36,573 bases of DNA from the IMG/VR virus record IMGVR_UViG_2728369393_000013; one strand, 5' to 3'. The position numbers and the translations under genes are program-made. The stretch's first letter is position 1; every line of letters starts with the position of its first letter. The notes under the pieces were generated by a model. The model ran no database searches, was not told where the DNA came from, and worked only from the letters and a program-made list of their open reading frames with translations. Source of the stretch: a virus. Taxonomy: Duplodnaviria > Heunggongvirae > Uroviricota > Caudoviricetes. Positions 614-36,573 of this stretch are shown here, one piece after another.

Positions 614-1204
614 ATGTCTCGAATTTTTGCTTACTGTCGGATATCAACGCTGGATCAGACCACCGAAAATCAACGCCGGGAAATCGAAAGTGCAGGTTTT
701 AAAATCAAACCTCAGCAAATAATCGAAGAACACATTAGCGGCTCAGCAGCAACCAGTGAGCGTCCTGGTTTTAACCGGTTGCTTGCTCGCCTGAAATGTG
801 GTGATCAATTGATTGTGACAAAACTGGATCGCCTTGGTTGTAATGCAATGGATATCAGGAAAACAGTGGAACAACTGACCGAAACAGGTATCAGAGTGCA
901 TTGCTTAGCATTGGGGGGCATTGACCTGACCAGTCCAACAGGAAAAATGATGATGCAAGTAATTTCAGCAGTCGCTGAATTTGAACGAGACCTTTTACTT
1001 GAACGCACTCATTCCGGGATAGTAAGAGCCCGGGGCGCAGGGAAACGTTTTGGTCGACCACCTGTGTTAAATGAAGAACAGAAACAGGTGGTATTCGAAC
1101 GAATTAAGTCAGGTGTAAGTATAAGTGCCATTGCCCGGGAATTCAAAACCTCGCGGCAAACCATTTTAAGAGCCAAAGCAAAACTTCAGACACCTGACAT
1201 ATAA
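614..1204 (+). CDS. pin: Pin/Gin/Hin-family serine DNA invertase (196 aa)
   Basis: N-terminal [15 protein letters not shown] with catalytic-serine context typical of serine recombinases, C-terminal HTH; length matches PinQ/PinE/PinR; sits next to tail fibre assembly gene. Confidence 0.9.
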
Positions 1205-1759
1205 AAAATAATCTCGGTGTGAGATGCTTTACGTCTTCCAAGCCCCCTTCCTTGCCGTAAATGGAAAGATACATCTAATTATAGAATTTATATGTTTTAC
1301 CCTACGGCAGTGCTGGCCATTCAATATCCTGTGCAGTTGACGTATCAACACGGTTCAGCAATACCCGATACTTTTTCCATGCTTCCAGCAACGAGATTTC
1401 TTCCTCCGTTGCAATTTCCAGATCTGCAGCATCCTGAAGCGGCGCAATATGCTCACTGGCTACCTGCATCAGGTTGTTTTTTGTTTCTTCCGCCTCCCGG
1501 ATCCGGAACAGTTTTTCTGCTTCTGCATCTTTCACCCAGGCTGTGCCGTTCCACTTCTGAAACTCCCCTTCCGGCGATAACCAGGTAACATTTTCCGGTA
1601 ACGGACCGAGTTCAGAAATAAATAACGCGTCCCCTGACGCTACGTCATAAACCGTTTTACCCGATGGTCTTCAACGAGATGCCACGATGCCTCATTGAGG
1701 TAGCCTGAGTTTAACGGACACTCCTTCCTGAAATAGAATGGCATCAGAAGGAGCTAATA

Positions 1760-2062
1760 ATGAGCAGAAAAACCCAACGTTACTCTAAAGAGTTCAAAGC
1801 CGAAGCTGTCAGAACGGTTCTTGAAAATCAACTTTCGATCAGTGAAGGCGCTTCCCGATTATCTCTTCCTGAAGGCACTTTAGGACAATGGGTTACCGCC
1901 GCCAGAAAAGGGCTCGGTACTCCTGGTTCCCGCACGGTGGCTGAACTGGAATCTGAAATTCTGCAACTGCGTAAGGCGTTAAATGAAGCTCGCCTTGAGC
2001 GAGATATATTAAAAAAAGCAACAGCGTATTTTGCACAGGAGTCGCTGAAAAATACGCGTTAA
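1760..2062 (+). CDS. IS3-family transposase OrfA (HTH, leucine-zipper region), 100 aa
   Basis: MSRKTQRYSKEFKAEAVRTV... typical IS3 OrfA; ends just upstream of OrfB with slippery heptamer near 3' end. Confidence 0.85.
   Translation: MSRKTQRYSKEFKAEAVRTVLENQLSISEGASRLSLPEGTLGQWVTAARKGLGTPGSRTVAELESEILQLRKALNEARLERDILKKATAYFAQESLKNTR
2022..2028 (+). promoter_or_regulatory. Programmed -1 ribosomal frameshift slippery site AAAAAAG for OrfAB fusion transposase
   Basis: A AAA AAG motif in the orfA/orfB overlap region, the canonical IS3-family frameshift signal. Confidence 0.6.
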
Positions 2063-2097
2063 TCGAACAATGGCGACAACAATTTCCCATTGAAGCG

Positions 2098-2916
2098 ATG
2101 TGTCAGGTATTTGGTGTATCCAGGAGCGGTTATTACAACTGGGTACAGCATGAACCCTCAGACAGAAAACAAAGTGATGAGCGGCTAAAACTGGAGATTA
2201 AGGTGGCACATATCCGCACTCGCGAAACATATGGAACCCGGCGGCTCCAGACGGAGCTGGCAGAGAATGGCATCATCGTTGGTCGTGACCGACTGGCACG
2301 TCTTCGTAAGGAGCTAAGGCTACGCTGTAAGCAGAAACGCAAGTTCAGAGCGACTACGAACTCGAACCACAATCTGCCAGTTGCGCCAAATCTGCTGAAC
2401 CAGACGTTCGCTCCTACAGCACCAAATCAGGTCTGGGTGGCGGACCTGACGTATGTTGCCACACAGGAGGGATGGTTGTACCTCGCTGGCATCAAAGATG
2501 TTTATACGTGCGAAATTGTCGGCTACGCCATGGGAGAGCGCATGACAAAAGAGCTGACAGGTAAAGCCCTGTTTATGGCGCTCAGGAGCCAGCGCCCACC
2601 TGCCGGGCTAATCCACCACTCTGATCGAGGTTCACAGTACTGCGCATACGATTACCGGGTCATACAGGAGCAGTTTGGTCTGAAAACATCAATGTCGCGT
2701 AAAGGTAACTGTTACGACAACGCTCCGATGGAAAGCTTCTGGGGAACGCTGAAAAATGAGAGCCTGAGCCACTATCGTTTTAATAACCGGGATGAAGCCA
2801 TCTCAGTAATACGGGAATACATTGAGATTTTCTACAATCGTCAGCGTCGTCACTCTCGTCTGGGGAATATCTCCCCGGCAGCCTTCAGGGAAAAATATCA
2901 TCAGATGGCTGCTTAA
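2098..2916 (+). CDS. IS3-family transposase OrfB (DDE integrase core), 272 aa as annotated from first ATG
   Basis: Contains conserved integrase-core stretches ([32 protein letters not shown]); true product likely OrfAB via frameshift. Confidence 0.85.
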
Positions 2917-3142
2917 AAAAAGAACAAATGGTAGTGTCCGCTATTGCCAGTACACCTCACATCACTGTTGAAAACAGCCACAAAGCCAGCAGGAATATCT
3001 GGTGGTGCAATATCGGTACTGTTTGCTGGCAGACCTGTATGAGGCGGAATATATGCGTCACCTTCACCAATAAATTCATTAGTTCCGGCCAGCAGATTAT
3101 AAATTTTTATGGTCCGTGGTTGTTCACTCATTCTGAATGCCA

Positions 3143-3973
3143 TTATGCAAGCCTCACAATATAGTTAAATGCGATGTTTTTGACGGTGTTTTCCGTGTTA
3201 CCAGCAGCGTTAACGGTGATGGTGTGTCCATGTGAACCAATCGCAACGGAGTGCGTATGAGCACCAATACCGACAGTATGCGCGTGTGCACCTGCAGATG
3301 CTGCTGTGCCGGACAGTGAGTGGCTATGATTACCATCTGTACTGGTATTAGCTAACCACCCCGTAGACATACCTACTGAGCCTTGTACACCCCAGGTATT
3401 TTGACCTGAGCTTGTATAACCATATTGATAAGTATCTTTAAAAACACTGGGGTTAAATCGACGGCCATCTCTATGGCTGTGATTACCAGCTGCATTCGTG
3501 CTGCCACTTAAACTATGGGTATGCGCACCAGTGTTATTCGTGGATTTAGTGCCGTAATCAAACGACGATGTGGTTTTCGTCCCCAAATCCGTACTGGATG
3601 CGCTGGCGCTGTGGGTATGCGATTTAATGCCGTCCTGTTCCTGAGACAATACGGCCCGACCACTGGCAGGTTTGCCCTTAATCGTCCAGCCACGCATATC
3701 AGGGATCACGCCTGACGGATAAGCCGCTGCAAGTTTCGGGTAGGCAGATTTGTCAAAAGTCTGCCCCTGCATCAGGGCATAACCAGACGGAACGGTATCT
3801 GATGGCCACGGGATTGGTGCACCGACTGGATAAAACTCTGCAGGAGGATGAGCTGAGGTGTAAAGCTGCGCCCACGGCGACCAGTTTGCGTCGGTCGTAT
3901 CCCGTCGTGAACGAATAAATGCCGGAGCATGAGCACCGCTTGTATCCGGACGTGCTGACATCCTGTCCGGCAA
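3143..3973 (-). pseudogene. stf: Side tail fibre (stf) C-terminal receptor-binding remnant, 276 codons, lacking the N-terminal shaft
   Basis: Gly/Ser/Thr-rich sequence with repeated HxH motifs (GAHTHS, GNHSHR, GNHSHS, GAHAHT, GAHTHS, GSHGHT) typical of phage tail fibre tips; stop overlaps tfa start; upstream frame is the gene I remnant rather than stf N-terminus. Confidence 0.7.
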
Positions 3974-4162
3974 TACGCATCTGATACCAGCCGTCGCTCA
4001 GTTTCTGACGAAACGCAGGGAGCTGTGTGGCCAGCGCCCGGATGGCTTCGGCCCCGTTTTCACACGAAGGTCGATGCGGCGGCCAAATCGTTGCAAATCC
4101 CCGTAAAGGCAGATGCGTGCCATGCCCGGTGACGCCAGAGGGAGTGTGTGCGTCGCTGCCAT
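3946..4162 (-). pseudogene. I: Lambda gpI-like tail tip assembly gene remnant: 5' part only, frameshifted, 3' end deleted
   Basis: Minus-strand translation from ATG at 4162 gives MAATHTLPLASPGMARICLYGDLQRFGRRIDL, shifts frame at a G4 run (4052-4055), then [36 protein letters not shown]; homology stops at about 3946. Confidence 0.7.
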
Positions 4163-4802
4163 TTGTCGGTATACCTCTCTCGTTTGCTCAGTTGTTCAGG
4201 AATATGGTGCAGCAGCTCGCCGTCACCACAGTAAATGGCGGCATGATTCGGCACCGATGAACCAAAACAGCACAGCAGCACATCGCCCGGCTGCGCCGCT
4301 GACAACGGCACCTGATACAGCCCTGTGGCCTCCAGATTATCCAGATAGAGATTCTGACCGTGACGCCACCAGTCATCCTCGCGGTGAAAATCCGGAATCT
4401 CAATCCCCGCCAGATGGTAAGCATCCCGGAACAGCGTGTAACAGTCCGTCACCCCGTGCTCAAAGCGCCGCCCGGTAAGATGCGGCACACAGCGGAACTT
4501 GTGAATCGCCCCCGGCAGACCAGCCACCACGGCAAATCACTCTGCACCTGCAGCCGCCGGTCAGCCTCACTCAGCCAGGGCAGACCACCGGGATGACTGT
4601 GGACCAGCGCCACAATCTCACCCTGCATTTGTGCACGCAACCAGTCCTCCGGCGACATCCGGAAATACTCCTCCGGCTCACCGGAGATATTCACGCAGGG
4701 GAAATATCTTTCCCCCTCCGGCGTTCTCACTACGAAGCCGCACGACTCCGCTGGCGCACATCGTCGGGCGTGCGCCAGAATCGCTGATTCTGTCTCTGTC
4801 AT
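4060..4802 (-). pseudogene. K: Lambda gpK-like tail tip protein (NlpC/P60-type), frameshifted near 4500
   Basis: Two overlapping minus ORFs (4449-4802 and 4060-4530) carry N- and C-terminal halves of a gpK-like protein (ESCGFVV...HSHPGG and IHKFRCVPHLTGRRFEHGVTDCY). Confidence 0.75.
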
Positions 4803-4807
4803 GGGAT

Positions 4808-5506
4808 TTACTGCGAAAGTTTGTTAATGGAAAGGAAGCCGCCAAAGTTGCCGACATTATTGCGAAACTTACAGCCACTCAGGCATTTGCTGCATTTATC
4901 CTTCGTGATATCGGACGTCGGCTGGTCATATTCATCCGCGACCGCCGGACCGTGATAACCGCACTCATCACCGCGATAGGTCCAGGTGCAGGTATTAGCC
5001 AGCATGATGCGCCCCGGAAAAACGGCACCATCCGTTTCAGTCGGCGTGGACAGTACAAAGGAGGCACTGACCGCGCTCAGTTCGCTGCACTGCTCGATGC
5101 GCCAGCGGCTAATCACCTCCTGCTCCGGATCGGCGTCGCTGTTTCCGTTGACGAAGTTCACCGCATCCAGAAAACGGGCATAAACCTTACGCCTGACCAC
5201 CGTTCCGCCGACCAGACTCTGTAGATCTTCCGCCATCCCGGTGACCATGCCATACAGGTTAGAAACCGTCAGCGTGGGGCGCGTACTGGTGCCTTTGCCA
5301 TTCAGTTCGAAACCACTCCCCTGAATGGGATACGCCTGATACTGTCGCCCCTGCCAGGTGACCGGCTCACCTTTTTCGTTCTGCTCATTACAGAAAAAAT
5401 AACGTTCTCCACCAACCTCTGTCAGATCGATTTCCCAGAGCACCACGCTGGCAGACTGCTCCGCACGGGTGCATTCATTCAGTGTTTCCTGTCGGATATC
5501 CTGCAT
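4808..5506 (-). CDS. L: Lambda gpL-like tail tip assembly protein (232 aa)
   Basis: Length and position between M and K as in lambda; Cys-rich C-terminus; synteny. Confidence 0.75.
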   Translation of the reverse strand: MQDIRQETLNECTRAEQSASVVLWEIDLTEVGGERYFFCNEQNEKGEPVTWQGRQYQAYPIQGSGFELNGKGTSTRPTLTVSNLYGMVTGMAEDLQSLVGGTVVRRKVYARFLDAVNFVNGNSDADPEQEVISRWRIEQCSELSAVSASFVLSTPTETDGAVFPGRIMLANTCTWTYRGDECGYHGPAVADEYDQPTSDITKDKCSKCLSGCKFRNNVGNFGGFLSINKLSQ

Positions 5507-5835
5507 CAGTTCACCACCTGTTCAAACTCTGCGCTGAACTCAACACGCAGCATACTGACCCGCGACGACCATTTTGCGCAGGTCACCTTTATCTGCCGCC
5601 ACTCATAAGGCGGCGTCCACAGAAAGGATTTCCAGCCACCGTGCTCTTCCAGAAACGACTCCAGTACCGTGGCCTCCTCACGGGGGACAGAAAGCGTCAC
5701 GCTGTACGTTTTCAGGTTGGCATTCAGCCCGGCAGGCGCTCGCTGGGAATAGCCATCACCAAAGCGCACCTTTCTTACAGAAGGGGCCGAAGCCACATCC
5801 ATACCGGGTTTCACTTTCCAGCGGAAGGTCTTCAT
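5506..5835 (-). CDS. M: Lambda gpM-like minor tail protein (109 aa)
   Basis: Size and position immediately downstream of the tape measure gene; synteny. Confidence 0.75.
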   Translation of the reverse strand: MKTFRWKVKPGMDVASAPSVRKVRFGDGYSQRAPAGLNANLKTYSVTLSVPREEATVLESFLEEHGGWKSFLWTPPYEWRQIKVTCAKWSSRVSMLRVEFSAEFEQVVN

Positions 5836-8391
5836 CGTCCACCTCCGGAGAACAGGCCACCATCACGCATCTGTGTCTGAATTTCATCACGGGCACCCTT
5901 GCGGGCCATGTCATACACCGCCTTCAGAGCAGCCGGACCTATCTGCCCGTTCGTGCCGTCGTTGTTAATCACCACATGGTTATTCTGCTCAAACGTCCCG
6001 GACGCCTGCGACCGGCTGTCTGCCATGCTGCCCGGTGTACCGACATAACCGCCGGTGGCATAGCCGCGCATCAGCCGGTAAAGATTCCCCACGCCAATCC
6101 GGCTGGTTGCCTCCTTCGTGAAGACAAACTCACCACGGTGAACAATCCCCGCTGGCTCATATTTGCCGCCGGTTCCCGTAAATCCTCCGGTTGCAAAATG
6201 GAATTTCGCCGCAGCGGCCTGAATGGCTGTACCGCCTGACGCGGATGCGCCGACACCAACAGCCCCGCCAATGGCGCTGCCGATACTCCCGACAATCCCC
6301 ACCATTGCCTGCTTAAGCAGAATTTCTGTCATCATGGACAGCACGGAACGGGTGAAGCTGCGCCAGTTCTGCTCACTGCCGGTCAGCATCGCCGCCATAT
6401 TCTGTGCAATACCATCAAAGGTCTGCGTGGCTGCACTTTTTACCTGCGACATACTGTCCGTGGCGCTCTCTTCCCACTCACTCCAGCCGGACTTCAGGCC
6501 TGCCATCCAGTTCCCGCGAAGCTGGTCTTCAGCCGCCCAGGTCTTTTTCTGCTCTGACATGACGTTATTCAGCGCCAGCGGATTATCGCCATACTGTTCC
6601 TTCAGGCGCTGTTCCGTGGCTTCCCGTTCTGCCTGCCGGTCAGTCAGCCCCGGCTTTTCGCATCAATGGCGGCCCGTTTTGCCCGTTGCTGCTGTGCGAA
6701 TTTATCCGCCTGCTGCGCCAGCGCGTTCAGGTGCTCCTGATACGTAACCTTGTCGCCAAGTGCAGCCAGCTGGCGTTTGTACTCCAGCGTCTCATCTTTA
6801 TGCGCCAGCAGGGATTTCTCCTGTGCAGACAGCTGGCGACGTTGCGCCGCCTCCTCCAGTACCGCGAACTGACTCTCCGCCTTCCACAAATCCCGGCGCT
6901 GCTGGCTGATTTTCTCATTTGCTCCGGCATGCTTCTCCAGCGTCCGGAGTTCAGCCTGAAGCGTCAGCAGGGCAGCATGAGCACTGTCTTCCTGACGATC
7001 GCCCGCAGACATCTTCACGCCGGACTGTTTCGGCTTTCTCAGCGTCGCTTCATAGTCCTTTTTCGCCGCCGCCATCAGCGTGTTGTAATCTGCCTGCAGA
7101 ATTTTCCCGTCCTTCAGTGCCTTGTTCAGTTCTTCCTGACGGGCGGTATATTTCTCCAGCGGCGTCTGCAGCCGTTCGTAAGCTTTCTGCGCCTCTTCGG
7201 TATATTTCAGCCGTGACGCTTCAGTATCGCTCTGCTGCTGCGCATTTTTGTCCTGTTGACTCTGCTGTTCAGCCTTCTTTCTCGCGGCTTCAAGCGCAAG
7301 ACGGGCCTTTTCACGATCATCCCAGTAACGCGCCCGCGCTTCATCGTTAACAAAATAATCATCCTTGCGCAGACTCCAGATGTCGTCCGCTTTCTTAAAC
7401 GCAGCCTCTGCCTTAATCAGCATCTCCTGAGCGGTATCAGGACGACCAATATCCAGCACCGCATCCCACATGGATTTGAATGCCCGCGCTGTCCTGTCTG
7501 CCCAGGTCTCCAGCGTACCCATGTTCTCTTTCAGGCGGCGGGTCTGGTCATCAAACCCTTTCGTCGCGGCCTCGTTCGCCGCCTGCAATGCCCCGGCTTC
7601 ATCGCCGGAACGCTGCAACTGAGCAACATACGCAATCTGCTCCGCCGTCACGTTATGGAACTGGCGTGCCATCGCTGTCAGCCCTGACGTCGGGTCTGTG
7701 GTCAGCTTCCGAAGGCTTCAGCGACCTTGTCCACCTCCACGCCGGATGCAGAGGAGAAACGCGCCACACTCTGGCTGATGGATGCAATCTGAGCCTCACC
7801 GCTTACTCCCGCCTTAACCAGTGCGCTGAGTGACTCGCTGGTCTGGTTAAACGTCAGCCCTGCCGCCTGCCCGGCTCTGGACAGGACCAGCATACGATCT
7901 GCCGTCAGACCCGACTGATTGCCGGAAAGGACAAGCGTTTTGTTGAAATCGGACAGGGTTGAGTTGCCCTGATACCAGGCATACGCCAGCGCACCGGTCG
8001 CCACCGCCAGCGAGGTGGCCCCGACCATCGGCAGGGTGATCGCACCGGCAAGCCCCCGGAACATGGGGATCATCCCGCCGAAGGAGTCCTTCACCTGCCC
8101 CCCCTGTTGCAGCAGGATCAGCCACGGACTTTGCCCGCCTGCAAGCTGCGTGGCCACGTCAGTGAACTGCGCAGGCAGCATACGCATGGCGGCTTTATAC
8201 TGCCCGACGGAAATTCCCGCTTTCTGTGCAGCCAGCGCCTGCCGGTTCATCGACTGTTCAACGACTGCCGCTGTTTTTTTCGCATCACTTTCCGTACCGG
8301 AAAAATGACGCCTGACTCTGGCCATCTGCTCGTCAAATCTGGCCGCATCCAGACTCAAATCAACGACCAGATCGCCTACCGGTTCAGCCAT
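5832..8391 (-). pseudogene. H: Lambda gpH-like tail tape measure gene broken into three frames (8391-7702, 7672-6644, 6560-5832)
   Basis: N-terminal MAEPVGDLVVDLSLDAARFDEQ, middle MARQFHNV...coiled-coil Ala/Gln/Lys-rich, C-terminal MSEQKKTW...GGR; frame changes at AA-for-AAA near 7690 and G4-for-G5 near 6612. Confidence 0.8.
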
Positions 8392-11730: not shown

Positions 11731-14321
<2,591 letters not shown>

Positions 14322-14347
<26 letters not shown>

Positions 14348-14670
14348 TCAGCAACCCCGGTATCAGTTCATCCAGTGCGGCTGCTTTGTTCATGGCTTTG
14401 ATGATATCCCGTTTCAGGAAATCAACATGTCGGTTTTCCAGTTCCGGAAAACGCCGCTGCACCGACAGGGGGATCCCGTCGAGAATACTGGCAATTTCAC
14501 CTGCGATCCGCGACAGCACGAAAGTACAGAATGCGGTTTCCACCACTTCAGCGGAGTCTCTGGCATTCTTCAGCTCCTGTGCGTCGGCCTGCGCACGCGT
14601 AAGTCGATGGCGTTCGTACTCAATAGTCCCTGGCTGGAGATCTGTCTCGCTGTCCTGCCTCAGTTCTTCA
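14322..14670 (-). pseudogene. Nu1: Terminase small subunit Nu1, C-terminal part, separated from its N-terminus by IS66-family insertion
   Basis: ...EELRQDSETDLQPGTIEYERHRLTRAQADAQELKNARD... continues the frame interrupted at 17203. Confidence 0.8.
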
Positions 14671-14755
14671 GTAAGCGTAAACTGACCGCCGTATGTAGCC
14701 ATCAGACGAGAATTGGTAACTTAGACGCCCATCTGATATAGACGGACATCTAAGT

Positions 14756-15181
14756 ATGGAATTACAGGACTGGCGAAAAGAACCTCGTAAAAACTATTCG
14801 AATGAATTCAAACTTCGTATGGTGGAACTGGCATCACAACCTGGAGCTTGTGTTGCACAGATTGCACGTGAAAATGGCGTCAATGATAATGTTATTTTCA
14901 AATGGCTCAGGCTCTGGCAGAACGAAGGGCGTGTTTCGCGGCGTCTTCCGGTAACGACCTCTTCTGACACTGGCGTTGAATTATTACCTGTAGAAATAAC
15001 GCCGGATGAGCAGAAAGAACCTGTGGCGGCCATTGCGCCGTCTTTATCCACTTCCACTCAGACCAGAGTCAGTGCCAGTTCCTGCAAGGTGGAATTCCGT
15101 CACGGTAACATGACGCTGGAAAATCCATCGCCAGAGCTGCTCACGGTGTTGATCCGTGAACTGACCGGGAGGGGAAGATGA
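14756..15181 (+). CDS. IS66-family accessory protein Orf1 (TnpA-like), 141 aa
   Basis: First ORF of IS66-type operon, overlaps next ORF by ATGA. Confidence 0.75.
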   Translation: MELQDWRKEPRKNYSNEFKLRMVELASQPGACVAQIARENGVNDNVIFKWLRLWQNEGRVSRRLPVTTSSDTGVELLPVEITPDEQKEPVAAIAPSLSTSTQTRVSASSCKVEFRHGNMTLENPSPELLTVLIRELTGRGR

Positions 15182-15528
15182 TCTCACTCCCATCAGGTAC
15201 CCGTATCTGGCTCGTTGCCGGCGTTACCGATATGCGTAAATCCTTCAACGGACTGGGAGAACAGGTACAACATGTGCTGAATGATAATCCCTTCTCCGGT
15301 CACCTGTTTATCTTCCGTGGCCGACGGGGTGACACCGTCAAAATTCTTTGGGCTGATGCTGATGGTCTGTGCCTGTTCACCAAACGCCTGGAGGAAGGCC
15401 AGTTTATCTGGCCTGCGGTACGTGACGGCAAGGTATCCATTACCCGCTCGCAACTGGCAATGCTCCTCGATAAGCTGGACTGGCGTCAGCCAAAAACATC
15501 CAGCCGTAACTCACTGACAATGTTGTAA
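15178..15528 (+). CDS. IS66-family Orf2 (TnpB-like), 116 aa
   Basis: Conserved IS66 Orf2 sequence (ISLPSGTRIWLVAGVTDMRKSFNGL...). Confidence 0.8.
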   Translation: MISLPSGTRIWLVAGVTDMRKSFNGLGEQVQHVLNDNPFSGHLFIFRGRRGDTVKILWADADGLCLFTKRLEEGQFIWPAVRDGKVSITRSQLAMLLDKLDWRQPKTSSRNSLTML

Positions 15529-15558
15529 AAAACTCCTGACCGCATTATAAAAACGGTC

Positions 15559-17172
15559 ATGAGTCAGAAATACCTCATTCGCATCGCAGAGCTGGAAAGA
15601 TTGCTCTCTGAGCAGGCTGAAGCCCTCCGTCAGAAAGACCAGCAACTGAGTCTGGTTGAAGAGACGGAAGCCTTCCTGCGCTCTGCACTGACACGTGCCG
15701 AAGAAAAGATCGAAGAAGATGAACGGGAAATAGAACATCTGCGGGCTCAGATAGAAAAACTGCGCCGGATGCTGTTCGGTACCCGTTCTGAAAAACTGCG
15801 TCGTGAAGTTGAACTGGCTGAGGCTCTGCTGAAACAACGTGAACAGGACAGCGATCGTTACAGTGGGCGGGAAGACGATCCTCAGGTTCCCCGCCAGTTG
15901 CGACAGTCGCGCCATCGTCGTCCGTTACCGGCACACCTTCCCCGAGAAATACACCGCCTGGAGCCAGAAGAAAGCTGTTGCCCGGAGTGTGGCGGTGAGC
16001 TGGATTATCTGGGGGAAGTCAGCGCTGAACAGCTGGAACTGGTGAGCAGTGCCCTGAAAGTGATCCGCACAGAACGGGTAAAAAAAGCCTGTACAAAATG
16101 TGACTGTATTGTTGAAGCACCGGCGCCGTCCCGCCCGATAGAGCGTGGTATCGCGGGCCCCGGATTACTTGCCCGCGTGTTAACGGGAAAATACTGCGAA
16201 CATCTGCCACTGTATCGTCAGAGTGAAATCTTTGCCCGCCAGGGTGTCGAACTGAGCCGGGCCTTACTCTCCAACTGGGTTGACGCGTGCTGCCAGTTAA
16301 TGACACCGGTGAATGATGCCCTGTACCGTTATGTAATGAACACCCGCAAGGTTCACACTGATGACACACCGGTAAAGGTACTGGCACCGGGTCAGAAAAA
16401 GGCGAAAACAGGGCGTATCTGGACGTATGTCCGGGATGATCGCAATGTGGGTTCGTCATCTCCTCCAGCGGTCTGGTTCGCGTACTCGCCGAACCGGCAG
16501 GGGAAACACCCGGAGCAACACCTCCGCCCCTTCCGGGGTATCCTGCAGGCGGATGCGTTCACAGGTTACGACAGGTTGTTCAGTGCAGAACGTGAAGGTG
16601 GTGCACTGACAGAAGTTGCGTGCTGGGCCCATGCCCGGCGAAAAATCCACGATGTATACATCAGCAGCAAAAGTGCGACGGCAGAAGAAGCCCTGAAGCG
16701 AATCAGTGAACTGTACGCCATCGAGGATGAAATACGGGGATTACCGGAGTCAGAGCGTCTTGCCGTCAGGCAGCAGCGAAGCAAAGTGTTACTGACGTCG
16801 CTGCATGAATGGATGGTGGAGAAGAATGGTACGCTGTCGAAAAAATCCAGACTGGGCGAAGCGTTCAGCTATGTACTGAATCAGTGGGATGCCCTCTGTT
16901 ATTACAGTGATGACGGTCTGGCGGAGGCGGATAATAATGCTGCGGAAAGAGCGCTTCGTGCAGTCTGTCTCGGAAAGAAAAAGTTTATGTTCTTTGGCAG
17001 CGATCACGGCGGCGAGCGTGGAGCACTGTTGTACGGGCTGATCGGCACCTGCCGTCTGAACGGTATCGATCCGGAAGCGTATCTGCGCCATATCCTGAGC
17101 GTACTGCCGGAATGGCCTTCCAACCGAGTTGATGAACTCCTGCCATGGAACGTAGTACTCACCAATAAATAA
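15559..17172 (+). CDS. IS66-family transposase Orf3 (TnpC), 537 aa
   Basis: N-terminal coiled coil, CxxC...CxxC zinc motif (CPECGG...CTKCDC), DDE-type core; stop 30 bp before right IR. Confidence 0.85.
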   Translation: MSQKYLIRIAELERLLSEQAEALRQKDQQLSLVEETEAFLRSALTRAEEKIEEDEREIEHLRAQIEKLRRMLFGTRSEKLRREVELAEALLKQREQDSDRYSGREDDPQVPRQLRQSRHRRPLPAHLPREIHRLEPEESCCPECGGELDYLGEVSAEQLELVSSALKVIRTERVKKACTKCDCIVEAPAPSRPIERGIAGPGLLARVLTGKYCEHLPLYRQSEIFARQGVELSRALLSNWVDACCQLMTPVNDALYRYVMNTRKVHTDDTPVKVLAPGQKKAKTGRIWTYVRDDRNVGSSSPPAVWFAYSPNRQGKHPEQHLRPFRGILQADAFTGYDRLFSAEREGGALTEVACWAHARRKIHDVYISSKSATAEEALKRISELYAIEDEIRGLPESERLAVRQQRSKVLLTSLHEWMVEKNGTLSKKSRLGEAFSYVLNQWDALCYYSDDGLAEADNNAAERALRAVCLGKKKFMFFGSDHGGERGALLYGLIGTCRLNGIDPEAYLRHILSVLPEWPSNRVDELLPWNVVLTNK

Positions 17173-17202
17173 GCGTCAATACGGTGCTCCGTTGACGCTT
17201 AC

Positions 17203-17407
17203 GTTCTTCAACTTCCCGGCGCAGCTTTTCGTTCTCAATTTCAGCATCCCTTTCGGCATACCATTTTATGGCGGCGGCAGAGTCATAAAGTACCTCATTA
17301 CCCTTGCCACCACCCCGCAGAACGGGCATTCCCTGCTCCTGCCAGTTCTGAATGGTACGGATACTCGCGCCGAAAATGTCAGCCAGCTGCTTTTTGTTGA
17401 CTTCCAT
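17203..17407 (-). pseudogene. Nu1: Terminase small subunit Nu1, N-terminal part (winged-helix DNA-binding domain) up to IS66 junction
   Basis: MEVNKKQLADIFGASIRTIQNWQEQGMPVLRGGGKGNEVLYDSAA...EKLRREVEE then reads into the IS. Confidence 0.8.
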
Positions 17408-19390: not shown

Positions 19391-19590
19391 TTCACTTTCT
19401 TAAATCTAACGACAGACGGCTAACATTTAAGTATTGTGAAATATTATCAAATGCAATCATCATTGATTTACAAAAGATACATTTTGCCCCGAAAGGATTC
19501 CTGTCAGAAACATCAAAAGATGATGTTCTATACTGAGAACCATGGCAACACGGGCATCTAAAGTGAATATGGTTTGTAATATTTTCTACC

Positions 19591-19803
19591 TCAAAGTGCC
19601 ACAACATGAACAGCCGCGGGGCCTTTAGGTCCGTTCTCAATACCAAATTCGACTTCCTGATTCTCAGTTAACGTTTTGAAATCGTTGCTCTGAATAGCTG
19701 AGAAATGGACAAACACATCTTTGCTACCATCTTTCGGCGTGATGAAACCAAAACCTTTTTCAGGGTTAAACCATTTCACTAAACCAGTCATTTTGTTAGA
19801 CAT
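19591..19803 (-). CDS. cspI: Cold shock protein, CspA family (70 aa)
   Basis: [38 protein letters not shown]... canonical CSD with RNP motifs. Confidence 0.9.
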
Positions 19804-20166
19804 CATTATTACCTTTTGAAGAAGTTAGCCCTTGGGCAGAATGGTCCGAAAAAAAATATCAGAGAGAAAAACCAACAAGGAAATCTCAAGAGGTACAAAT
19901 AATAAAATTATAACAATGACTGCTTCAGATAATTTTGTAACAAACCAGAACACCATTAACGCATGATTAACCAACCATAGCAAGGATTACTTTTGTAAAG
20001 AAAAACACACGAATGAAACAATAGCTTTATTTATTAATAAAACGTGTCATTCTGTCTAATGACCTTTTATCTTACCCTTAAGATTTCAAGGATTTTGACT
20101 CATGGAAGAGTCCTTTTTATTTAAATTTCACATTCAGCGCTAAAAATAATCCGATTTAATATTAAT

Positions 20167-22760: not shown

Positions 22761-23039
22761 TATTGTGGTGCTTTTTGTGGGAGTCATCCACTTACGCACT
22801 TTGTTTTGCTATGCTAGCAGTTAGCTTCTGCTGTAAAACTATTCATGCAGCAAACCTGCACTTCACCACAATGGTTAGCATACTTTTCCTGATTAAGTTA
22901 TTGCCAAATATGCTGGCCATTGTTTCATGTATTGGATCTCCTTACTATTTATTAAAGAGATCCAATATTCACCACTCTGTCTGTATCTCCACTCAGGCAT
23001 CAGCCTTCTTCGTTATCGTATACAGACAAACTATTAATT

Positions 23040-23255
23040 TTAATCAGTAATTATGACATTTGCTGCTGCAGGACCTTTAGCACCACTCTCTACAGAGAAG
23101 GTAACCTTTTGACCTTCAAATAAGGTTCGAAAATTATCATTCTGAATCGCAGAAAAATGCACAAACACATCTTTACTACCATCAACAGGAGAAATAAAGC
23201 CAAAACCTTTATCAGCGTTAAACCATTTTACTAAACCAGTCATTTTATTTGACAT
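23040..23255 (-). CDS. cspB: Cold shock protein CspB-like (71 aa)
   Basis: [53 protein letters not shown]... Confidence 0.9.
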
Positions 23256-23555
23256 TCTACATTCCTTAACTTGAGCCTTTCGGCATAAATGGCTTGTATA
23301 ACAGAAACGACTTCGTACTTAATTGGAGAGACTCAAAGAAGGAATAAGTGAATAACACCTGAAATGAGAACTGCTTTAGTAAACTACTTCGTATATCGTC
23401 TGTTCTTCAAACCGACGCAATCATTAACGCATAGTTGAACATATGAAGCAATGTTTATTTTAGACATCCAGCCATCTTCAACCCCATCAAAAAACTATAG
23501 CTTTCTTCAGGAACGTGTGTATAGTGCGCCAAGTTATCAGTATTAAGGAATTTTT

Positions 23556-31090: not shown

Positions 31091-31919
31091 GACGATGCCC
31101 TCCGCTGATATTCAGGAAACGGTGAATATGAAGATTAGCCTTATCCGCCAGACGAATACGTTCAGCCTGCAAGTTAAGAAGGGTTTCTACCAGAACCTGA
31201 TGCGCCTGCGGATCCGAAAGAGTTACCTTGCGCAGAGCACGTAGTGCAGTTGTTACATAGCTGAGTTTATGTAAGTCTTCATCATTCAGACGAGTGAGGG
31301 CTGGGACAGTAGCCATGATGGCAGCCTCCGTATGCAATGGATAACTTCCACCACCGGAAACGCCAATTTCGCTGGTGGTGAACTGAGCAGGGTTGGCGTA
31401 ACCGGCGCATACGGAAACCGGCGCACCTTTCGGTGCCCCCACCCAGCCCACCATAATTTGGGTATAGCTGAGTTGTAGCAACAAAAAAGACGCTAACGCG
31501 CCAATTGTCGCCGTATGCAATTCCAGGACGCCAATCCCGGCACCCGCTTTATAAGGTGCCTGAACAGTGTAACGTCCCGGAATGGCAGAATCAATGTGCT
31601 GGTGGTCCTTCACACTCAACAAAATCACGCCTGAATTTCCACAAAGGGCTAAAGCACTCATGCGGGTAGTCTTTGCGAAGATAGATAACGCGCTGTGTTT
31701 CTGGCTCCCAACGAATAACATGAACATAAAGTCCTCTTCCGTCACGAAACCAGCGGTTAAGTTCCTGCACAACTCGCCCCCCACAGTCAGGTAAAGTTCT
31801 CTGTGGTTACTTACAGCCAGGAGATTTGGTAATCTGCATTCATGCCGTAACAACAGGTGTTCAGCGACGCTGACCACCAGCTGTTGCGACAAACGGTTAT
31901 TTGCCGTTAAACTGTTCAT
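31083..31919 (-). CDS. Hypothetical protein (278 aa) in replication module
   Basis: Long ORF in operon orientation; no motif recognised by eye (no Walker A). Confidence 0.45.
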   Translation of the reverse strand: MNSLTANNRLSQQLVVSVAEHLLLRHECRLPNLLAVSNHRELYLTVGGELCRNLTAGFVTEEDFMFMLFVGSQKHSALSIFAKTTRMSALALCGNSGVILLSVKDHQHIDSAIPGRYTVQAPYKAGAGIGVLELHTATIGALASFLLLQLSYTQIMVGWVGAPKGAPVSVCAGYANPAQFTTSEIGVSGGGSYPLHTEAAIMATVPALTRLNDEDLHKLSYVTTALRALRKVTLSDPQAHQVLVETLLNLQAERIRLADKANLHIHRFLNISGGHRHA

Positions 31920-35910: not shown

Positions 35911-36036
35911 TTTCCTTACTGCAAATGCCCCTGCGGGGCATTTATGGAAACATAATTGACTCAATAATCGCCTGATGGCGAGGGTTTTCTTTAACCAAAA
36001 TTCAGCGCGGTGCAGCGCATATACGTGGAGAACAAA

Positions 36037-36573
36037 ATGTCATTTATTAAAACTTTTTCCGGGAAGCATTTTTATTATGACAAGATAAATAAAGACGACA
36101 TCGTGATTAACGATATCGCGGTTTCCCTTTCAAATATCTGTCGCTTTGCAGGACATCTTTCACACTTCTACAGCGTCGCCCAGCATGCGGTGCTTTGCAG
36201 CCAGCTGGTACCGCAGGAATTTGCTTTTGAAGCGTTAATGCATGATGCAACAGAAGCGTATTGCCAGGACATCCCGGCTCCACTGAAACGCCTTCTTCCT
36301 GATTATAAACGGATGGAAGAAAAAATAGACGCCGTAATCCGTGAGAAATACGGGTTACCCCCGGTTATGAGCACACCTGTGAAATATGCCGATCTCATCA
36401 TGCTGGCAACCGAACGCCGCGATCTCGGACTTGATGATGGCTCTTTCTGGCCTGTACTGGAAGGCATCCCGGCAACAGAGATGTTCAAAGTTATTCCACT
36501 GGCTCCGAGCCATGCCTACGGGATGTTTATGGAGCGCTTTAACGAGTTATCGGAGTTACGCACATGCGCATGA
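36037..36573 (+). CDS. yfdR: HD-domain phosphohydrolase, YfdR-like (178 aa)
   Basis: HD-domain motifs H...H (LSHFYSVAQHAV) and HD (ALMHDATEAY); start at MSFIKTF; stop at window end. Confidence 0.6.
   Translation: MSFIKTFSGKHFYYDKINKDDIVINDIAVSLSNICRFAGHLSHFYSVAQHAVLCSQLVPQEFAFEALMHDATEAYCQDIPAPLKRLLPDYKRMEEKIDAVIREKYGLPPVMSTPVKYADLIMLATERRDLGLDDGSFWPVLEGIPATEMFKVIPLAPSHAYGMFMERFNELSELRTCA

Follow-up and report, generated by a model that had tools for sequence, protein, structure and literature searches.

How did a lambda-type tail region come to have a fragment of gene I running almost directly into the C-terminal end of a tail fibre gene? The arrangement occurs in IMG/VR record IMGVR_UViG_2728369393_000013, a stretch of 36,573 nucleotides that was analysed as a whole and is called the window below. 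According to the ORF list, the left 17 kb of the window form a lambda-type morphogenesis region on the minus strand. In gene direction the order is nu1 (interrupted by an IS)-A-W-B'-FI-FII-Z-U-V-G-T-H-M-L-K, followed by an I-like piece, a tail-fibre C-terminal ORF and tfa (also IS-interrupted); a pin-type invertase gene and ydfK lie on the plus strand at the left end. Identity to phage lambda is 96-98% across the head and tail genes. As argued below, a defective lambda-like prophage next to prfC in Escherichia coli of the EHEC O145:H25 type has very probably undergone an internal deletion at this site. Two genes frame the region of interest:

614..1204, plus strand: pin-type serine invertase, intact, at the prophage end (ORF; PGAP 'recombinase family protein'; 96.6% DNA identity to the mEp460 tfa-pin region)
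4060..4802, minus strand: gene K, tail-tip assembly protein with JAB/MPN and NlpC/P60 domains (Pfam Prok-JAB and NLPC_P60 on the CFSAN004176 copy; PGAP 'C40 family peptidase')

Results and Discussion

Carriers of the locus

A 121-nt probe across the junction was fully covered in one of 5426 complete E. coli genomes, that of CFSAN004176 (NZ_CP014583), with 100% identity. A junction 29-mer gave 0 matches in each of three collections: the GTDB species representatives, IMG/VR and the JGI metagenome contigs. The EHEC O145:H25 strain CFSAN004176 was isolated from a patient with haemolytic uraemic syndrome; its prophage P07 (52,094 bp, at prfC) is listed as 'mEp460, lambda-like', and the copy in the sister strain, CFSAN004177_P09, has 52,084 bp (PMC5567499). 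At the matching CFSAN004176 locus, PGAP assigned Qin-type names (rzpQ, rrrQ, essQ, cspI, cspB, cspF and ydfT). Rfam places two cspA-type thermoregulator leaders upstream of the prophage cold-shock genes cspI and cspB (19545-19961 and 22977-23416, minus strand).

Position and sequence of the junction

The breakpoint was located by alignment to intact I of E. coli JNE181771 and to intact stf of mEp460_ev081 and of E. coli 2014C-3011.

3944..3945, minus strand: deletion junction I'/'stf (three-way alignment to I and stf of parental type; BLAST matches from either side stop at 3944)

When window positions 3100-4900 were searched by megablast against the 5426 complete E. coli genomes, the L-K-I matches, which numbered in the thousands, ended at query 845-847, corresponding to window 3944-3946. 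Among phage genomes, the stf tip and the start of tfa matched mEp460_ev081 at 99.3%, in an alignment ending at the same base, 3944. In lambda numbering, homology extends through L-K-I to nt 14990-14991 (I codon 73 of 223) and resumes inside orf-314 (stf). An earlier note on this DNA had described a deletion joining the 5' part of I to the C-terminal tip of stf, with the I-like frame ending at about 3946 and the tail-fibre frame starting within a few bases. Alignment to the parental-type genes bears out this description, and the position was correct within 2 nt.

On the minus strand the junction reads ...GATGTCAGCACGTCCGGAT|ACAAGCGGTGCTCATGCT..., while parental I continues past the break as ...CCGGAT|TAACGGCG and parental stf reads ...GGAGTGGT|ACAAGCGG across it. 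The I-derived and stf-derived sequences overlap by a single T (3944, minus strand), the only base that fits both parents. The same alignments with parental-type I and stf revealed neither filler DNA nor an IS end at the join. Microhomology-mediated deletion, with at least 2-3 nt common to the two parents at the join, is ruled out by this overlap of 1 nt. A 1-nt overlap is expected from blunt, homology-free joining about half the time, and it gives no pointer to the enzymatic route of the join. The microhomology first suspected in the DVSTSG/PDTSG region exists at the amino-acid level only. Both parents encode T-S-G near the break, using different codons (ACG TCC GGA versus ACA AGC GGT), and both TSG copies were kept, in tandem, at the junction; the likeness is a protein-level coincidence.

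Repeats and hairpins around the junction amounted to short imperfect matches of the chance type. A crossover core for Pin/Hin/Gin invertases (AAACC-NN-GGTTT-like) had no match within 2 mismatches near 3930-3960, and over the whole window such cores numbered 15 against 18.4 expected by chance. An invertase-mediated rearrangement finds no support, the crossover core not being found at the junction.

The two stumps and their reading frames

The join leaves three features:

3944..4162, minus strand: I', 5' stump of tail assembly gene I, 73 of 223 codons plus 1 nt (Pfam, phrog, identity to JNE181771, PGAP)
3143..3944, minus strand: 'stf, 3' stump of the side tail fibre gene, last 266 of 1023 codons plus stop (DNA identity, tblastn, Pfam, phrog, PGAP)
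3753..3943, minus strand: out-of-frame read-through of I', 63 codons in the +1 frame of stf, stop at 3753-3755 (CFSAN004176 translation; ORF 3753..3980)

The I stump matches Pfam Lambda_tail_I (PF06805) over profile positions 2-57 of 83 (E 1.8e-16, 60.8 bits, cut-off 23.8) and phrog_4244 (E 3e-46). Up to position 3944 it is 100% identical to I of E. coli JNE181771 and ~95% identical to that of lambda. Its start (4162) overlaps the 3' end of K (4802..4060), and J, its neighbour on the other side, is missing. Full-length I has ~190-223 amino acids with a glycine-rich hydrophobic middle; 73 native codons are left here, the C-terminal 150 being missing from the window. In the window copy a 1-base deletion in a C-run at ~4051 also splits the stump into two frames, a detail not in the earlier note.

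The stf stump corresponds to the last 801 nt of a 3072-nt gene of the mEp460 type, kept from nt 2271/2272 (codon 758) onwards. Its DNA is 99.0% identical to mEp460_ev081 (stf nt 2271-3072) and 99.8% identical to E. coli 2014C-3011, and tblastn with mEp460 Stf returned residues 758-1023 only (98.9%). Pfam finds a Collar domain (E 2.6e-12) and Phage_fiber (E 4.4e-6), and phrog_295 is matched at its C-terminal positions 577-794 of 794 (E 1e-139). With its Collar domain and HxH-rich fibre repeats, the stump retains what makes up the receptor-binding tip; the N-terminal tail-attachment domain and the alanine/serine-rich shaft (~750 codons) are missing. The start of tfa overlaps the stf stop at 3143. 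That the stf ORF might be a complete unrelated gene can be set aside: it holds the last 266 of the 1023 Stf codons and lacks the native start.

The fusion is out of frame, which the earlier note had missed. In CFSAN004176, where the sequence is uncorrupted, translation of I' gives 136 amino acids, of which residues 74-136 are nonsense. This read-through tail is a by-product of the fusion and no gene. In the stf frame, a 276-codon ORF (3143..3973) runs back into I-derived DNA as far as a stop. PGAP labels the stumps in CFSAN004176 'tail assembly protein, incomplete, missing C-terminus' and 'phage tail protein, incomplete, missing N-terminus'; with both annotated as pseudogenes in RefSeq, the scar is already on record.

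Extent of the missing DNA

Missing are the 3' two-thirds of I, the complete J and lom genes, and stf up to codon 757. Searching the 36.6-kb window by tblastn with two J and two Lom proteins gave no match at E<=1e-3. The PGAP annotation of the matching prophage locus in CFSAN004176 contains neither gene, and neither do the next 16 kb rightwards of the window there, which fall inside the published 52-kb boundaries and carry no phage structural genes. The proposed absence of J and lom therefore holds for the window and for the flanks in the matching genome, and a check for a J-like gene elsewhere in the prophage found none.

Both mEp460_ev081 (LR597641) and lambda (J02459) have an intact I-J-lom-stf-tfa region with the same gene order on the two sides of the scar. 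The L-K-I part of the window is 94-95% identical to mEp460 and lambda, and the stf tip-tfa-pin part is 97-99% identical to mEp460. The points joined in the window lie 6.1-6.9 kb apart in these intact phages: the gap is 6905 bp on mEp460, ~6.76 kb on a JNE181771-type parent and ~6.1 kb on lambda. The loss of about 5 kb proposed earlier is too small for any of these parent types. Both the size and the assumption of a single step rest on the conserved lambda gene order, because, when one was sought, no undeleted parent of this very prophage was found. The best matches to I (JNE181771) and to stf (2014C-3011, mEp460) come from different genomes. JNE181771, the closest carrier of I, has a different stf tip (Stf tip 77% identical only), and 2014C-3011, the closest carrier of the stf tip, has kept stf intact and lost its tail genes.

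Origin of the scar

We infer that the ancestral tail region had the order H-M-L-K-I-J-lom-stf-tfa-pin and that 6.1-6.9 kb, from I codon 74 to stf codon 757, would have been lost from it in a single illegitimate, homology-independent joining of a break or in a replication error. The ends would have been joined without meaningful homology (1 base common) and out of frame, leaving two presumably dead stumps, I' with 73 real and 63 nonsense codons and 'stf, whose 266 codons lack a native start. The scar itself is probably without function.

Insertion sequences might have taken part. An IS3-family element (IS600 or IS629) in the J-lom-stf interval could have been lost together with its flanks, for example by IEE-promoted excision, leaving a clean junction. 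Such elements abound in O145:H25 strains, which carry more than 50 copies of IS600 and in which the iee gene is now interrupted by this element (PMC5567499). Within the window, one IS600 lies 985 bp from the junction, in tfa, and a second IS lies in nu1:

2960..3143, minus strand: tfa', first 61 codons, cut by IS600 (100% to mEp460 Tfa residues 1-61; phrog_105; PGAP partial)
1696..2959, plus strand: IS600 (IS3 family), 1264 bp, in tfa (PGAP 'IS3-like element IS600 family transposase, programmed frameshift'; ends and duplication read directly)
1302..1695, minus strand: 'tfa, 3' part (Pfam Caudo_TAP, E 2.5e-43; tblastn residues 73-191, 99%)
14671-17202: ISEc23 (IS66 family, tnpA-tnpB-transposase) in nu1, with the 8-bp target duplication GTTCTTCA at 14663-14670 and 17203-17210

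The IS600 copy has the ends TGAGGT.../...ACCTCA and a 3-bp target duplication, CAT, at 1693-1695 and 2960-2962. Its size, terminal inverted repeats, duplication and two-ORF transposase are those of a simple insertion. Because the duplication is intact, the element is not the end-point of an IS-mediated deletion; it entered tfa earlier or later and does not mark the edge of an adjacent deletion. The junction has neither an IS end nor filler. Excision of an IS, or by IEE, may leave no trace. We consider an IS-associated origin unlikely. As a separate observation, Rfam reports IS009 (221 bits) within the 3' part of tfa (1336-1534, minus strand).

An illegitimate exchange between two lambdoid prophages or phages, one contributing I' and the other 'stf-tfa-pin, appears extremely unlikely. 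It would account for the best matches lying in different genomes (I 100% identical to JNE181771, whose Stf tip is 77% identical; the stf tip 99% identical to mEp460, whose L-K-I is 94% identical), and the host genome does contain several lambdoid prophages, with eight matching places in CFSAN004176. However, lambdoid mosaicism leads one to expect differing best matches even with a single parent, and the genes flanking the scar are arranged and oriented exactly as in a single lambda-type tail region. An exchange is not needed to explain the data, and its outcome would be the same: J lost and both genes truncated.

That the 276-codon ORF is a working gene, encoding either a receptor-binding tip that acts by itself or a novel fusion of I with Stf, has next to no probability. 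The ORF is long, it offers a TTG start and an in-frame ATG, and its tip sequence is 99% identical to the tips of functional phages. Yet the I and stf frames differ, so that no I-Stf fusion can be made, and the TTG and ATG both sit in I-derived sequence in which, read directly, neither is preceded by a Shine-Dalgarno motif. Tfa is a fibre assembly chaperone, and in this same prophage its gene is cut by IS600. PGAP calls the ORF a pseudogene, and the high identity of the tip would be expected after a recent deletion no less than under selection.

Quality of the assembly

Compared with CFSAN004176, the window shows two substitutions (662 and 30270) and ten 1-base deletions over its 36.6 kb, all of the deletions in C/G homopolymer runs (~1659, 4051, 4508, 6647, 7708, 10653, 14294, 31974, 32380 and 35934). 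The deletions break I, K, H (twice, giving three ORFs), Z, A, ymfL and tfa. K, for example, is whole in CFSAN004176 and split in the window by the C-run deletion at ~4508, and the 3' part of tfa has acquired an added C-run deletion at ~1659. In CFSAN004176 the genes concerned are intact apart from the IS-cut tfa; I' is still a deletion stump there. Because the genes other than the IS-cut tfa lack the frameshifts in CFSAN004176, the ten deletions are probably PacBio sequencing errors. Pseudogene counts taken from the window assembly are affected accordingly, most of the extra frameshifts probably being sequencing errors.

Errors of this long-read type could raise the suspicion that the junction, too, is an artefact of a collapsed or mis-joined long-read assembly, but we regard this as virtually excluded: CFSAN004176, assembled separately and differing from the window at 12 further sites, has the identical junction, the site contains no repeat on which an assembly could collapse, and the two O145:H25 genomes, both PacBio-only assemblies, were checked against optical maps (PMC5567499). 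The scar is real, being common to both assemblies and optical-map checked.

Other lesions in the prophage

The head genes carry a deletion of their own:

11780-11783, minus strand: B'/'E head-gene deletion (lambda 3279 to 7149)

Here the portal gene B breaks off at about codon 148 and continues into the final 12 nt of E. About 3.87 kb (lambda nt 3280-7148) are removed: the remainder of B, the genes C, nu3 and D, and almost the whole of E. This join has 3-4 nt of microhomology (CAAC/AAC), as against 1 nt at the I'/'stf join. The ISEc23 insertion in nu1 lies at lambda nt 388-395.

In the window and the CFSAN004176 flank, we found no integrase, no excisionase (beyond yfdR) and no recombination module in the prophage. 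Beyond yfdQ/yfdR (window 36010-36573 and onwards) follow a LysR regulator, a hydrolase, IS elements, fosA7.5, nanM/nanC and fimB. The published 52-kb limit was apparently stretched to reach fimB, which encodes a recombinase.

The early region of the prophage also holds a pair of small RNA sites, in or beside an 'ash family protein' ORF:

31371-31458 and 31483-31559, minus strand: C4 antisense RNA (Rfam, 80.7 bits) and the adjoining isrK Hfq-binding RNA (Rfam, 61.2 bits)

Comparison with other prophages

The end module of the window, with ynfT/ydfK, the pin invertase, tfa and a C-terminal piece of stf, is the same as in Qin and Rac of E. coli K-12, whose ends we take to be ydfK-pinQ-tfaQ-stfQ' and pinR-tfaR-stfR, respectively. 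Qin and Rac are presumably further-reduced relatives, cryptic lambdoid prophages in which internal deletions removed J along with other morphogenesis genes. In contrast to them, the element in the window keeps far more of the head and tail region (A, W, B', FI-FII and Z-U-V-G-T-H-M-L-K-I'), is located at prfC and has its own private breakpoints.

Independent deletions removing J were found at the same ynfT-ydfK-pin-tfa type of locus in four other E. coli lineages, and all the breakpoints differ:

E. coli 94-3024 and CFSAN002236: J'/'stf deletion
E. coli EC21Z-048: I'/'stf deletion, 108 nt of stf left
E. coli EC596: K'/'stf deletion
E. coli FCI56: a more fragmented J-removing version

As in the window, tail-tip genes are fused to the residual 3' end of stf and annotated as pseudogenes. 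All four lineages keep the ynfT-ydfK-pin-tfa end together with a residual 3' piece of stf (108-1869 nt). Conceivably, the stf tip-tfa-pin end is kept by selection, as a reservoir of receptor-binding tips that are recombined into incoming lambdoid phages; the stf end-point of the deletion would then be constrained by selection and not random. We judge this very unlikely. Nothing in the window supports it, and here tfa is broken by IS600 and the stf stump has no start.

Predicted consequences for the prophage

In lambda, J (the tail-tip, host-specificity protein) and I are needed to start assembly of the tail tip. The M-L-K-I-J tail-tip module of the window lacks the J that it requires. Because J and a complete I are missing, lambda tail-assembly genetics predict that the prophage would have no tail initiator and would be unable to make tails. 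Because of its several other lesions, it should also be unable to make heads, to package DNA or to excise.

The scar is ordinary prophage decay, private to one EHEC lineage. The P07/P09 prophage of O145:H25 (PMC5567499) is best regarded as a dead remnant, which should not be counted as a potentially inducible phage.
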